This document shows, piece by piece, positions 23,021-28,782 of a stretch of DNA of 30,854 nucleotides. The DNA is from an uncultured delta proteobacterium (GTDB lineage: Bacteria > Desulfobacterota > Binatia > UBA9968): assembly GCA_963804165.1 (NCBI GenBank), contig CAWDPO010000028.1, forward strand, positions 1 to 30,854. Reading direction: 5' to 3'. The notes beneath the pieces are model-generated. The model saw only the letters and a list, made by a program, of their open reading frames with translations, did no database searches and was not told where the DNA came from. Both the position numbers and the translations under genes were made by a program. How positions within the stretch are numbered: position 1 is the stretch's first letter; each line of letters opens with the position of its first letter.

Positions 23021-24636
23021 TTAGGCAGGGCTCAGAGCCGATGTTCTCATCTGGAAGGCGAGCAGATTTAGATATCGTTTCACATTGCAAGCGGCTCCCA
23101 TCAAATAATGCGATAGCCCGACTCGGCTCAGCCCCCGATATTTCGTCGTCTCAGCCCGTGCCCGCGCACCAACTCGCTGTGGGTCCCCTCTATCCCGTTT
23201 CGCGGATGCATGCTCTTTGAGAACCCGCTCTGTTTCATTTCTCTGCGCCGCTGCTCGACCAGATCATGGCGCAGTCCCACGACCAAAGTTCTCCGTCCAC
23301 TCTTGGAACGTGTACACTGATTTTGTACAGGACAACTATCACATTGATTACCCCACTCGATGCGATAGTACTCGGTTCCCATGTAGCTATCTTTGATGCG
23401 GCTGCACTGCGTGCTGAGTTTGCCCTGGGGACAAACCGCCTGGCGTTTGTCGATATCAACATGGAACGCATCGCTATTGTACGCTCCCTTGTGCGGGTCG
23501 GGACGCGTCGGGCCTAATAACTCGATGCCGTTTTGTTCAGCTTGCGTTAAGGTGTTCTCGGTGACGTAACCGGCATCGGTATACATCGCCTGGGGTGTGA
23601 TCTCATGGTGCTGCTGTTCTCTTTTGAGCGTCTCGGTTAAACCCGCCATCTCGTCCTGGGCCGCCTCGGTGGTCAGTATCTCGGTAATAAAATGCTCGGC
23701 GGGCTCGCCTTTTTTCTTGATGGGTTGTTGTGGATCGACGCTCTCCGCCACATGCACCTTGTAGCCGGTCCACTGCTTGGTCCTCTTATCGGCATAATGC
23801 GCATCGGGATCATGCGGGTTCTGTACCGCGCGGGGCGGCCGCTTGGTGGCGGGCTCAAGCTTTCCCTCGACCACCTCAAAGTGCTCCTCAAAGACCCGGC
23901 GCAAAAGTTTCACCGCCTCCCGTTCCCTGAGCTTAGAATCATTTCTGTCTAGCCACTCCAAAAGCTCTCTCATGTGTTGCCCACACTGCCGATAGCGCCT
24001 ATCGTGCTCGGTCTTGCTTAATCGCCAATCGAGTTTGCTCTGCACGTACAACTCCCATAGTCTGTCCCAAAACTCGGGCCGCTTTTTCTTCCCAACTTCA
24101 TGTTCCAAATCCTCCACCGCCAAGCGCAGCGTCTCCATCGCGCACTCCAAGTAGCTCATCGCTTTCACGTATCCCACGATATGGGTGCTATCGAGCCGCT
24201 GCTTGCCCTTTTTCTTCACCAATCCCAACTCCACCAGGAGCTTTAAGATCCCGTCAAAAATCATCCGCTCGGCTTTTTTCTTTTCCAGCCGGTCGCGAAA
24301 ATAAACCAACACCGTGGAATGAAACCCGTCGTAGTCCAGTTCCAAATCCAGGGCGTACTTCCAACCCAAGTGATACACCACCTGCTCGGTGGCCGAGCGG
24401 TCGGCCGCTTTCTCCATGAACTGCAGCAGCGTCACCCCGCATAACAGCACCGGATCGATAGCCGGTCGCCCGTTATCCTCGCAGTAAAGCGCATGAAGCT
24501 TAGCTGAAAGCTCTAAAAGCTTGGGCCAGATCTTTTCCCTAAACAGCCGGTAGCGGTTGGCCGGACCGAAAAGATTTCCAGCAAGATAGTCGGTATGATA
24601 AAAGCTTCTCTGGGCATCGGCGGCTCTTACGCTCAT
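23021..24636 (-). CDS. IS1182-family DDE transposase (frameshift near 23147)
   Basis: 'GRPAIDP', 'QRLDSTH', 'WTGYKVH', 'YTDAGY', 'CDSCP..C', 'RNGIEGTHSEL'; the shifted frame restores 'TKYRGLSRVGLSHYLMGAACNVKR...' to TAA at 23021. Confidence 0.88.
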
Positions 24637-24699: not shown

Positions 24700-24882
24700 A
24701 TGAACTATCCCACTAAAGTCCAGGCCATCCGCCGCAAAAAGGCCGTCTCTCAGTGTTATGTTAACTTGCCGCTGCCTCTAGCTGCGGCCATTGATATCGA
24801 ACCAGGGGAGATGGTGCAGTGGAAAGTCGACACCCGTTACAAACTCTTCCTCATCCGCCAACGACCTAAGAAAAGAAAATAA
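24700..24882 (+). CDS. Small AbrB/MazE-like DNA-binding protein inside the IS
   Basis: 60 aa 'TKVQAIRRK...YVNLPLPLAAAIDIEPGEMVQWKV' fits the swapped-hairpin pattern; its stop abuts the inverted repeat. Confidence 0.7.
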   Translation: MNYPTKVQAIRRKKAVSQCYVNLPLPLAAAIDIEPGEMVQWKVDTRYKLFLIRQRPKKRK

Positions 24883-24997
24883 CCATGAGGGGTTTTTCAG
24901 CAGAATCGATATACAGGCCTGATAATCATCTAGCCGGTTTCTCCAGTAGGCCGTAAGTTTGAGCGATCAAACTTTAGTGTCGAAGGAGGAGACGGAG

Positions 24998-26013
24998 ATG
25001 AAGTTGTACGGAGCGATCGATCTGCACTCGAATAACAACGTGACGGTGTTGATCGATGAACAAGATCAGGTTGTGTATCAAAAGCGGCTGCCCAACGATC
25101 TGCCATTGATCGTCCAGCAGCTCTCAGGCTATCAGGACGCGCTCCAAGGCATTGTCGTGGAGTCGACCTTCAACTGGTACTGGCTGGTCGACGGCCTGAT
25201 GGACCAAGGGCATCGTGTTCATCTGGCCAACACGGCCGCGATCCAACAGTACGAAGGGCTCAAATACACCGACGATCATTCCGACGCCCGCTGGCTTGCC
25301 CACATTCTGCGGCTGGGAGTTTTGCCTGTGGGCTACATCTATACAAAAGAAGAGCGGGCGGTACGGGATCTTTTGCGCAAGCGCGGCCAGATGGTCCGTC
25401 AAAGAACCACCAACTTGTTAAGCCTACAGAATCTGATCACGCGTAACACGGGGCGATCGATCAGCTCGAATCGAATCAAGACCCTCGATGCACAGCAGAT
25501 TGACGATCTGCTACCCAACCCGGACTTAGCGCTGGCAGTCAAAGCCAACCTGGCCATGATCAAGTGCGCCGCTGAACAGATCATTATTTTGAGAGAACCG
25601 TCACCGAAAGGATAAAACTGAGAGAGGAGTTTAGCTTTCTCAAGACCGTGCCGGGAATTGGGCAGATTCTGGCGCTCACGATCATGCTGGAGACCGGAGA
25701 GATCCAGAGATTTCCCACGGTGGGAGACTACGCCTCGTACTGTCGCTGTGTCGGGAGTCAGAAGTTAAGCAACGGCAAGAAAAAAGGCAGCGGCAATACC
25801 AAGAACGGCAACAAGTATTTGGCTTGGGCGTTTGTCGAAGCGGCCAACTTCGCGATCCGATACGAGGCGAGGATCAAAAGCTTCTATCAGAGAAAGAAGG
25901 CCAAGAGCCATGGTGTGTTGGCGCTCAAAGCGGTGGCTCACAAGCTGTGCCGGGCTTGTTACTACATCATGAAAGAACAGGTGGCCTTCGATGTCGCCAA
26001 GGCGTTTGCCTGA
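24998..26013 (+). CDS. IS110-family recombinase/transposase (frameshift near 25591)
   Basis: DEDD RuvC domain ('AIDLHS', 'VVEST', 'TDDHSDA') plus Tnp domain ('TVPGIG', 'KLSNGKKKG...KNGNKYL'); AAGGAGG RBS; one missing base joins the two ORFs. Confidence 0.92.
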
Positions 26014-26029
26014 ATAAGTATTTACGGCT

Positions 26030-26365
26030 GGGATGGGGCAGTGAGCTCGCATAGGGGTTGGTTCACAACCACGAGGCCTGATTAGCCGCTGCTCCGTCCC
26101 TGAAATCTAGACAACTCGGGAATGATTTGATCAGATGGTACGCCCACGCCGTGAGCCACATTTGGGTTGGACACCCGAAAGGGTGAGCCAGAGGATCTGT
26201 GAATCCTATAACCTTGGACACGGCGTGGTACCGACAGTTTTCTGGGGCAAGCTAAATTGCCAGGGGCGGGAAGAAAATTCTCTCTCGAGTATTCTCCCAC
26301 AGCCTTGATCCTGATGGGTGACTGGTGCGGACCAAAATCCGACACCGACCGATTGAAAACAGGGG
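26030..26365 (+). ncRNA. Putative bridge RNA / seekRNA
   Basis: Stem 26030-26047/26084-26100 encloses GGGGT and AGGCCTGA (target matches); a second loop carries ATGGGTGA and GATT (donor-junction matches) around hairpin 26324-26346; boundaries approximate. Confidence 0.7.
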
Positions 26366-26841
26366 TGCGTGACCTAGACAATCAAACGGCTGTCTAGTTG
26401 AATCAACCGGAGAAGAAAAGAAATCCTTCTCCGCGGGAAGGTCTGTGCCTACTTGACCTGCCGGCTAATGGGTGACCCCGATTCCTTCGCCGAATAGTGG
26501 AGATCCCGGAAGGATGCGATGCCAGCGGCAAGATTTCAGTCATGCTATAAAATGCCATAATACAAATTACTTACGGGACGATACGAAAACGAAACTGCCT
26601 TCGATACCTTCAAGAAATTCTCAGACGCGATGGCGTCGCACGTGAAAAACCGCCAAAGCCAGAGAAGGTTTCCAGCTCCGTGCAAGAGCCCGTGCGCTTG
26701 CGTTTGATGCTTAGGCCGCCCATCAGCTCATCGACCGATCAGTTCAATCAGCGTGATCCGCACCTCGGGGGCTCGTTGTTATTCAGTCCTAATATCTGTA
26801 CATATCACCGAGCCGCTAAGTAATCGGCAGTCACGTAAGTT

Positions 26842-28782
26842 ATGGAAAAACCTGTAGTGAAGGCTCAGACCGAAGACAACACGCCAACTGAGCACGGAGA
26901 TGACTCGGCGCCATCCAAGCCGTTTCCCTTTGAACGTGTCGGTCCATATCAATTGATCGACCGTTTGGGCGATGGCGGGTTAGGTGAAGTCTACCTGGCC
27001 GAGCAGGAGGAGCCGATCAGGCGAAAGGTCGCCCTCAAGCTCATTAAAACCGAGATGAACACGCCGGAAGTCGCGGCCCGCTTCGAGACGGAAATTCGCG
27101 CGGTAGGAATTCTCGACCACCCGAACATTGCCCGTGCCCTGGATGCCGGAACCGTAGGGGACGGCAGGCCCTATTGTGTGATGGAGTACGTACCGGGAAT
27201 TTCCATCACTGATTATTGCGACCGCAATCGTTTGACCGTGCGGGAGCGATTACAGATGTTCGTCCAGGTGTGTCGAGCGATGCAGCATGCTCATCAAAAA
27301 GGCATCATCCACCGTGATATCAAAGCCTCAAACGTGCTGGTGACGGTGCAGGACGGGGTTGCGACGCCCAAGATCATCGACTTCGGCGTCGTCAAGGCGC
27401 TCCACCAACGTCTCACCGAGCAGCCCGCTATCACCCTGCATGGCGAGCTTGTCGGCACACCCGAGTACATGAGCCCGGAACAGGCTGAGATGTCGGGACT
27501 GAACATTGATACACGAACTGACATCTATTCGCTCGGAGTGCTTTTGTATGAGTTGCTCGTTGGAAGTCTTCCCTTTGACCCCACTACCCTCCGTCAATCA
27601 GGCCTGGACGGGATCAAACGGATTATCCGTGATATTGAACCGGTTAAATTAGGCCAGCGTTTAACTGGTCCCGGCTCGAAGCCGGAGGACGTGGCCCACA
27701 AACGCCGCACGGACTTAAAGACACTGAAACGTCAGATTCATGGTGATTTGGAATGGATCACGTCGAAAGCGATCGAGAAAGATTCGACGCGCCGATATAA
27801 CTCCGCCTCGGAGCTCGCCGCCGATATCGAGCATCATTGCAACAGTGAGCCGGTCACGGCCGCCCCGCCATCGGCGACCTACCCGCTGAAAAAATTCATA
27901 CGCCGGCACAAACGCATTGTCAGCGCCGGAGTCATTGTCACAGCGCTTCTCCTGGTGGGCATCTTCGAAATCACAACCGGGCTGCTCCTGCAGCGCCAGG
28001 CGCGCATCGAGGCACAAAAGGAGGTCGAACGTGTGCGGGCGGTTATGGACTATATGCTGCGCACAGTTTCGGTAATGGAGGATGCCAAACGCTCAGAAGT
28101 CAAGGCCGCAGCCATCCTCGATGCCGCCGCGTCAAAGATCGACATCGTTTATTCGCACCAACCGGAAGTCGAGGCGGGCGTGCGCTCGACCATCGGCGAA
28201 TTTTACATGGAGCTTGGTCTGCATGGCCCGGCCGAGCAGCATTTACGGCGCGCCCTAGGCATCAGAAAAAAAATCTTGGGCGACGAAGCGCCCGACTCGC
28301 TCTACTCGATGAGAAAGCTGGCAGCACTGCTCAGGATGCAAGGCAGGCTCGATGAGGCGGAGCTGATCTTAGGGCAGGAAGTCGAGACCAGCCGCCGTGT
28401 TCTCGGGCGCAATCATGATGAAACCATCGCAGCGCTGGCCGAAATGGCTCATCTGCGAGAAGCACAGGGCCGAATTGCCGACGCCGCAGAGCTTTCGCGC
28501 CAGACGGTCGAACAAGCGCTGCGGGCCAAGCTAAAGGACGACTGGCAGATGGCCGTCTACTGGCTGGATCACGGCAGATATCTCACCCGGATACGACAAT
28601 TTCCGCAGGCCGAGAAGTCCTTGCTGGAAAGTCTCGCAGCACTGAAAACCCTTCTCGGTCAGGACCATCCCCTGGCAAAAAAAGCAACGCGACATTTGGT
28701 GGAACTTTATGAGGCATGGAGCAAACCAGCGCAGGCCGCGGAGTACCGTACCTTACTCAGCACCAAGTCAACTTCAAAATGA
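26842..28782 (+). CDS. Hanks-type Ser/Thr protein kinase with TM helix and TPR repeats
   Basis: 'LGDGGLGEVY', 'VALKLIK', 'HRDIKASN', 'DFG', 'GTPEYMSPE', 'DIYSLG'; TM 'IVSAGVIVTALLLVGIF'; TPR-like 'ALGIRKKILGDEAPD', 'LLGQDHP'. Confidence 0.95.
   Translation: MEKPVVKAQTEDNTPTEHGDDSAPSKPFPFERVGPYQLIDRLGDGGLGEVYLAEQEEPIRRKVALKLIKTEMNTPEVAARFETEIRAVGILDHPNIARALDAGTVGDGRPYCVMEYVPGISITDYCDRNRLTVRERLQMFVQVCRAMQHAHQKGIIHRDIKASNVLVTVQDGVATPKIIDFGVVKALHQRLTEQPAITLHGELVGTPEYMSPEQAEMSGLNIDTRTDIYSLGVLLYELLVGSLPFDPTTLRQSGLDGIKRIIRDIEPVKLGQRLTGPGSKPEDVAHKRRTDLKTLKRQIHGDLEWITSKAIEKDSTRRYNSASELAADIEHHCNSEPVTAAPPSATYPLKKFIRRHKRIVSAGVIVTALLLVGIFEITTGLLLQRQARIEAQKEVERVRAVMDYMLRTVSVMEDAKRSEVKAAAILDAAASKIDIVYSHQPEVEAGVRSTIGEFYMELGLHGPAEQHLRRALGIRKKILGDEAPDSLYSMRKLAALLRMQGRLDEAELILGQEVETSRRVLGRNHDETIAALAEMAHLREAQGRIADAAELSRQTVEQALRAKLKDDWQMAVYWLDHGRYLTRIRQFPQAEKSLLESLAALKTLLGQDHPLAKKATRHLVELYEAWSKPAQAAEYRTLLSTKSTSK

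Follow-up and report, generated by a model that had tools for sequence, protein, structure and literature searches.

The bridge RNA of the insertion sequence IS621 is about 177 nt long. It is encoded 5' of the transposase gene, has a target and a donor part that each use both strands, and presents its guides in simple internal loops in which the 5' side pairs with the bottom strand (Durrant et al. 2024, PMC11208160). The IS621 guides contain a dinucleotide core, and in the right guides the two bases beside the core-pairing part, once the strands have been exchanged, pair with the non-cognate DNA, with which they also covary (Hiraizumi et al. 2024, PMC11208158). Far less worked out are the guide RNAs of the IS1111 group, which is marked by subterminal inverted repeats and a long non-coding region 3' of the gene (PMC11187229, PMC11208160). 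In the seekRNAs tested in this group the top-strand match comes first, 5' of the bottom-strand match, whereas IS110-type RNAs have the opposite order; an 82-nt ISEc11 seekRNA comprising the target loop alone moved a mini-IS (PMC11187229). Published views of IS1111 RNAs differ: one holds that a short target-only RNA is enough (PMC11187229), whereas the other predicts a bispecific RNA, with potential donor-binding bases in a multiloop in many IS1111 orthologues (PMC11208160). Junction promoters have also been described for the IS110/IS1111 family (PMC11187229, PMC12288879). The available passages of PMC13604230 draw no link between IS1111 and the handshake guides, and in PMC13626964 IS1111 occurs in the reference list only.

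The locus described here lies in a 30,854-nt stretch of DNA (the window) from an uncultured delta proteobacterium of the Binatia. Its sequence makes it likely that the locus is an IS1111-group element whose 3' non-coding region encodes a bridge RNA or seekRNA with a target loop and a donor strand. Like the seekRNA elements ISEc11, ISKpn4, ISPa11 and ISPst6 (Siddiquee et al. 2024, PMC11187229), it combines a non-coding region 3' of a DEDD transposase of ~340 aa with subterminal inverted repeats, natural re-targeting among relatives, and a top-strand match 5' of a bottom-strand match, covarying with the target. The published seekRNAs measure 82-96 nt (short) or 148-172 nt (long), whereas the structure here extends about 300 nt past the target loop, and the extended region contains, unlike those seekRNAs, a strand that would read the right end. 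The right-end location and the donor-binding bases in a multiloop agree with the IS1111 bridge RNAs predicted by Durrant et al. 2024 (PMC11208160). With IS621 the locus shares a two-part RNA for target and donor that uses both strands, guides containing a dinucleotide core, and two core-adjacent bases matching the non-cognate partner (PMC11208160, PMC11208158). It differs in that the RNA is encoded 3' rather than 5' of the gene, the target-loop order is reversed relative to the bottom-strand-first guides of IS621, the donor strand sits in a multiloop instead of a simple internal loop, and no left-end guide was found whereas IS621 reads both donor arms (PMC11208160); moreover, the handshake-like bases stand on same-sense strands, unlike in IS621 (PMC11208158).

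Structure of the element

Positions 24922-26474 of the window are a 1553-bp IS1111-type insertion sequence of the IS110 family (Table 1). The ends assigned to it in a first-pass annotation recur in a complete second copy in the source genome, which is 91% identical, has different flanks and confirms the boundaries. The genome also contains four solo right-end pieces and one solo left-end piece (C26:28486-28693, C46:77149-77195, C39:55529-55601, C26:7973-8021 and C23:45219-45324); all four right-end pieces end ..AATGGGTGA, followed by C-rich flanks, and the left-end piece is 105 nt long. Subterminal inverted repeats of 7 bp lie seven bases inside each end, and their two sides co-vary in relatives (TAGCAGG/CCTGCTA, TAGAAGG/CCTTCTA, TGACGGG/CCCGTCA). 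The non-coding sequence is divided into 75 nt upstream and 462 nt (26014-26475) downstream of the gene; this split and the subterminal repeats fit the marks given for the IS1111 group (PMC11187229, PMC11208160). Both junctions carry TG with no duplication beyond the short core, and the two full copies and many relatives lie at guide-matching sites.

The transposase reading frame is present in two pieces, 24998-25615 and 25648-26013. Across these two pieces, PF01548 (DEDD_Tnp_IS110, the IS110 N-terminal, RuvC-like DEDD domain) was matched on 24998-25612 (E 1.4e-12), as was the C-terminal domain PF02371 (Transposase_20; E 1.1e-16), and comparison with PDB sequences recovered ISCro4 (E 6.6e-12) and IS621 (E 1.2e-8). 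Residues D8, E55, D93, D96 and S258 are invariant in 10 diverse relatives, and the transposase Ser aligns with the ESG Ser of the ISCro4 and IS621 transposases. The local catalytic motif, CRCVGSQK(L/I)SNG, does not match the expected GL-P----SG / G--P----S(t)G pattern. In the alignment of relatives, the C-terminal motif of the clade (columns 247-264) is SYCRCV.S...SNGK.KG, with two invariant cysteines. Relative to an intact relative, the window copy lacks one base near 25581-25595, and the gene of the sister copy also lacks one base, at a different place; the missing bases may reflect decay or a homopolymer error of assembly. Because each gene lacks one base, both copies are probably inactive, barring assembly error. 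Intact genes of 338-341 codons were found in 8 related loci.

Just upstream, a 502-aa DDE transposase of another IS family (PF13751, PF05598) occupies 23128-24636 on the minus strand and is followed by a 60-aa reading frame without a Pfam match (24700-24882, plus strand). Downstream, 26842-28782 (plus strand) encodes 646 aa that by eye resemble a Ser/Thr protein kinase followed by repeats at the C-terminus. The source genome contains 15 empty target-like sites of the form AG[GA][CT]CTGACCC (e.g. C17:2749, C17:80269, C43:54578, C34:33422). Repeated sequence (GAATCCAGATTCAGGCCTGACCC, TTGCAAGACCTGACCCT) surrounds several of these sites, so that the element may naturally target a segment of some other repeat or of an element end. 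TGACCCCTTTT-type repeats frequently adjoin relatives of the element.

Table 1. Positions of the element's features within the window
Feature	Position	Strand	Basis
Left TG core copy; target flank ..ACAGGCC 5' of core	24920..24921	+	junction comparison
Left end: ATAATCATC, then TAGCCGG (24931-24937), small hairpin, ribosome-binding site	24922..24997	+	
IS110/IS1111-type DEDD transposase gene, two frames	24998..26013	+	Pfam, intact relatives
Loop 1, putatively target-binding	26030..26101	+	fold, covariation with flanks
Long-range helix 26136-26143 / 26327-26334 and enclosed domain	26136..26334	+	covariation
Central domain: helix 26144-26153 / 26219-26228, hairpin 26246-26261, helix 26263-26267 / 26302-26306		+	inside long-range helix
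Putative donor/handshake strand ATGGGTGAC	26314..26322	+	match and covariation
Local hairpin 26324-26331 / 26338-26346	26324..26346	+	covariation; rivals long-range helix for 26327-26331
Right end: TTGACC 26453-26458 (-35-like), CCGGCTA 26461-26467, ATGGG 26468-26472	26453..26472	+	
Right TG core copy; right target flank ACCCCGATT from 26475	26473..26474	+	

Relatives and transcription

Among 90 genomes from the same family, 54 contain a match to the non-coding region, a tally that includes three unpublished genomes. Named genome records yielded 58 loci, down to about 53-60% protein identity, in assemblies that carry the labels Candidatus Binatia, Deltaproteobacteria, Nitrospirales, Burkholderiales, Verrucomicrobia and others. 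A metagenome scan returned 594 relatives, and the 80 best were retained for analysis. The same set of parts, namely loop 1, the central domain, the strand ATGGGTGAC and the right end, is preserved throughout the collected relatives (individual loci are given L numbers below).

Contigs of relatives from soil and rhizosphere RNA libraries (4 runs, 85% likeness, uncovered parts carrying no meaning) cover the non-coding region; such libraries can hold DNA. Two of the contigs cross the gene stop into the non-coding region, DNA carry-over being possible. The shares in the RNA libraries with relatives were small (0.05-0.14), and the depth peaks at 26203-26324 in one RNA run cannot rank expression. 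A promoter and terminator scan of 24850-26560 returned a single promoter-like site and a single terminator-like site, numbers that do not exceed those in shuffles. The TTGAC of the right end is kept in 20 of 21 diverse sequences and, once the right end is joined to the left, would be separated from a downstream GATAAT or GATGAT by 15 nt (17 in the beta-proteobacterial clade). We read TTGACC-15 nt-GATAAT across the circle junction as a candidate promoter, in agreement with the junction promoters already published (PMC11187229, PMC12288879).

Target recognition by loop 1

All the strings reported in the first-pass annotation are present where it placed them. The octamer AGGCCTGA at 26074-26081 is identical to the left flank plus core at 24915-24922, and GGGGT at 26054-26058 is followed by TGGTTCACAACCA at 26059-26071. 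The proposed enclosing stem (26030-26047 / 26084-26100) folds and is maintained by compensatory changes in relatives, the outer stem of the loop consisting of 13 pairs, mostly with such changes. Among 20000 mononucleotide shuffles of the non-coding region, AGGCCTGA occurred in 0.7%, the donor octamer ATGGGTGA in 0.86% and both in 0.005%; any target 8-mer together with any donor 8-mer, in either sense, occurred in 2.5%. GGGGT alone, present in 48% of shuffles, is at chance level.

The proposal that loop 1 binds the target is borne out by permutation tests in which both strands covary with the flanks: across relatives the 3' strand tracks the left flank and the 5' strand the right flank. Loop 1 was parsed in 49 regions (38 distinct) of loci L001-L106. 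On the left side (26 elements, 14 guides), the 5 nt before the core match their own flank at 3.85 positions on average, compared with 1.85 for the flanks of elements with another guide, and none of 20000 flank permutations reached the observed sum; on the right side (31 elements, 20 guides) the values are 6.61 and 5.25, again with 0/20000 permutations, and in the closest clade the right-flank guide beyond a constant ACCC is weakly cognate (2.16 versus 1.66, reached by 265/20000 permutations), all of these permutation counts overstating significance because kin are not independent. L039, in which the right-end tip is duplicated, was dropped from the right-flank test. The loop-1 parse caught 22 of the 80 metagenome loci; the other 58 were unscored, and 15 of these were read by eye. 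In a later junction parse loop 1 was mis-registered in L020, L120, L123, L149 and L160 and failed in L072, L158 and L153; the evidence from L149, L153, L160 and L165 is a reading by eye.

Individual elements illustrate the correspondence. Guide and flank words are identical in L009 (AGGTC), L019 (AAAGTC) and L020 (TGGTC), and each guide with AGGCC, AGGTC, AAAGTC, TGGTC, AGATT, GGACT or AAAAG adjoins an identical flank word. Right-flank guides include ACCCCTTTT, matching 9/9 in L016, and GTCCGCTGTC, matching 10/10 in L079, with further matches by GACTGCTT (L072, L078), ACACCTTTC (L158) and GACCGGAGT (L183); in L015 the right-flank guide matches 8/8 if one base is counted as lost. In the window copy the 3' strand of loop 1 matches its flank at 8/8 and the 5' strand, CATAGGGGT, at 7/9, and the right-flank guide is therefore longer than the GGGGT first proposed. 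Several natural copies lie at imperfect sites (L011, L012, L014). The guide order, which had been flagged as an oddity for being swapped between the two loops, is in loop 1 the published order of IS1111 seekRNAs (PMC11187229). The two bases following the core in loop 1 are AT everywhere (..TGAT) except in L165, where a single event has given AG (..TGAG) and the left end also begins with AG.

Core dinucleotide

The first-pass annotation took TGA as the core, and TGA is indeed common to both junctions of the window copy. The left end always begins with A, and the right flank begins with T, G or C in L079, L085, L091, L137, L149 and L160, where TG alone is shared; the core is therefore the dinucleotide TG. 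Its first base may differ between junctions: in L016, L078 and L079 the left junction has TG and the right one CG. One clade has CG on both sides as well as in the loop-1 guide (L017, L020, L054). In L009, L014 and L015 the right TG core should be followed by A, but this base is absent or replaced (..ATGGGTGCCC..).

RNA structure

The non-coding region folds better than its shuffles (z = -3.75), and a scan of 24700-26800 against Rfam at E up to 1 gave 0 matches. RNAalifold on 21 diverse sequences (L063, with a mis-set end, was left out) returned 53 pairs, 28 of them with compensatory changes, and the G-U pairs in the stems are consistent with the plus strand only. The long-range helix is paired in 97.9% of cells with 29 double-change cells, and none of 500 shuffles reached its covariation score. 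It closes a multiloop that presents ATGGGTGAC on the strand just 5' of the 3' half of the helix. The local hairpin described in the first-pass annotation is itself supported, with 91.2% of cells paired and 10 double-change cells. The two folds are mutually exclusive because the hairpin uses 26327-26331, which are common to both, and the competing helices may constitute a conformational switch.

Donor strand and right end

The identity between ATGGGTGA at 26314-26321 and the right end at 26468-26475, noted at the outset, extends to 9 nt (ATGGGTGAC, 26314-26322 = 26468-26476) and covaries with the right end in relatives. The 9-mer consists of the last 5 nt of the right end, the TG core and the first 2 nt of the right target flank. 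The strand was found 108 times in the collected loci (80 distinct rows), and 53 right junctions were parsed without using the guide. In 46 of these junctions bases 1-5 are identical to the right end, mostly as the same ATGGG, and bases 8 and 9 equal the first and second flank bases in 47/53 each. Base 8 fails to match in six junctions: inspection by eye traces three of these to the parse (L075, L080, L111), and L009, L015 and L039 are genuine exceptions, with A at base 8 and C as the first flank base.

Base 8 is T together with a T-initial flank in L074, L079, L085 and L149, and also in L091 and L140; in L137 bases 8 and 9 are C and T, as in the flank; and base 8 is G in L160 and A in its near relative L153, a pair that also differs in the final base of the loop-1 right-flank guide. 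Non-A states of base 8 agree with the flank throughout, and bases 8-9 track it in four nucleotide states and at least 4 separate lineages. Since the flank lies outside the element, descent or conversion within the element cannot explain bases 8-9; insertion-site selection through pairing can. Right-end variants are mirrored in the strand in L136 (ATGGC) and L141 (AAGGG), and an ATGGA right end accompanies a ..GGA strand in L079, L080 and L085. L142 is discordant (guide AAGGG, end AATGG), and the L079 group retains, at base 2, a C that faces T. Because the donor ends hardly vary, the covariation of bases 1-5 stems from few events (L136, L141 and the L079 group).

Several elements carry rearrangements in this region. 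A hairpin of ~32 nt is inserted inside the donor strand in L019/L055 and in L024, which belong to different sub-clades, and one of the elements with such an insert has an intact transposase gene. In L146, L147 and L156 the same foreign sequence with a reading frame interrupts the right end just after TTGAC; it looks like another site-specific element targeting the IS. The right-end tip, the last 10-20 bases, is tandem-duplicated in three separate elements (L039/L051, L075, L082).

Search for a left-end guide

The left end is ATAATCATC in nearly all relatives, with the variants ATGATCATG, ATGATCATC, ATAATCATA and AGGATCATC. GATT at 26351-26354, proposed as the right-donor guide, is present in 13 of 22 close and 3 of 21 diverse relatives, the left end being nearly invariant, and it occurs in 79% of shuffles, that is, at chance level. 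The closing stem suggested for the second loop, CCTG (26310-26313) with CAGG (26360-26363), is paired in 75% of cells with one compensatory cell, compared with 69-71% for slid controls. The 3' strand of loop 2, considered as a left-end guide, does not track the left-end variants, and the single strands of the multiloop (26229-26245) track neither these nor the variants of the subterminal repeats.

A search of 11 diverse non-coding regions with 5-mers of core plus left end, in either sense, found none that was consistently complementary. The sole recurrent match is TGATT(A), at the 3' terminus of the loop-1 guide; the core and the near-palindromic TGATAATCA make it inevitable, and it shows no change corresponding to the left-end variant ATGATC. 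Of the two arms that a donor loop would read, the right-end arm is read and the left-end arm is without a covarying strand.

Discussion

According to the mechanism we favour, the plus strand of the 3' region would encode a bridge RNA or seekRNA of ~300-440 nt in which loop 1 binds the target and, ~230 nt downstream, ATGGGTGAC is presented in a multiloop closed by the long-range helix. The two same-sense strands would thus spell the two post-insertion junctions, following the handshake-guide logic of IS621 viewed from the other DNA strand: arm, core and two partner bases. The left end would probably be placed by the protein together with the subterminal repeats, or via its continuity with the right end in the circle junction. 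To the sequence matches, the covariation with flanks and ends and the covarying helices observed here, work on ISEc11, ISKpn4, ISPa11 and IS621 adds the expectation, by analogy, of an RNA that is produced, binds to the transposase and directs recombination. The donor strand may be dispensable in IS1111 elements, aiding rather than being needed, because the 82-nt target-loop RNA of ISEc11 sufficed (PMC11187229).

The sufficiency of this short seekRNA (PMC11187229) would also fit an alternative in which loop 1 is the sole guide and ATGGGTGAC serves structure or protein binding within a conserved 3' domain, its resemblance to the right end being inherited or otherwise constrained, for example by a promoter-like context CTTGA..CCTG shared by both copies. 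CTTGA does precede both the segment and the right end, the identity in 46/53 junctions is chiefly that of a nearly invariant ATGGG on both sides, and the 11 diverse non-coding regions held no partner guide for the left end. We nevertheless consider this alternative unlikely, since bases 8-9 track a target flank outside the element through four nucleotide states in at least 4 lineages, which excludes descent or gene conversion, and the right-end variants ATGGC and AAGGG are mirrored in the segment.

The IS621-like internal loop put forward in the first-pass annotation, closed by CCTG/CAGG and holding ATGGGTGA on its 5' side as left-donor guide and GATT on its 3' side as right-donor guide, is consistent with the presence of all its strings in the window copy and with the covariation of the local hairpin. 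We regard it as highly improbable: GATT is expected by chance and is lost in relatives with the same left end, the closing stem does no better than its slid controls, and the better-supported long-range helix takes part of the local hairpin. A bridge RNA or seekRNA with a target loop and a multiloop donor strand is the preferred reading of the locus.

The locus is a natural example of a known IS1111 guide-RNA system in a probably dead copy, with a loop-1 order that has already been published, and for its host genome it is an ordinary, probably dead, insertion sequence. Its interest for specialists lies in the flank-reading bases of the donor strand and in the two competing helices. Tentatively, IS1111 guide RNAs in general might be mirrored handshakes (arm, core and two partner bases) with a multiloop donor strand and mutually exclusive, selected helices acting as a switch, a generalisation that we regard as possible rather than probable. 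If true, the mirrored handshake would reconcile the view that a seekRNA alone suffices with the bispecific-bridge-RNA view of IS1111, and the switch could control processing, or decide whether the element inserts or excises. The clade is frequent among bacteria of soil and groundwater that carry the labels Binatia, 'Deltaproteobacteria', Nitrospirales and Burkholderiales, and its many naturally re-targeted relatives allow each guide position to be read against its DNA. They offer testable rules for programming an IS1111-type recombinase, namely the TG core, the guide lengths and the two flank-reading bases of the donor strand.
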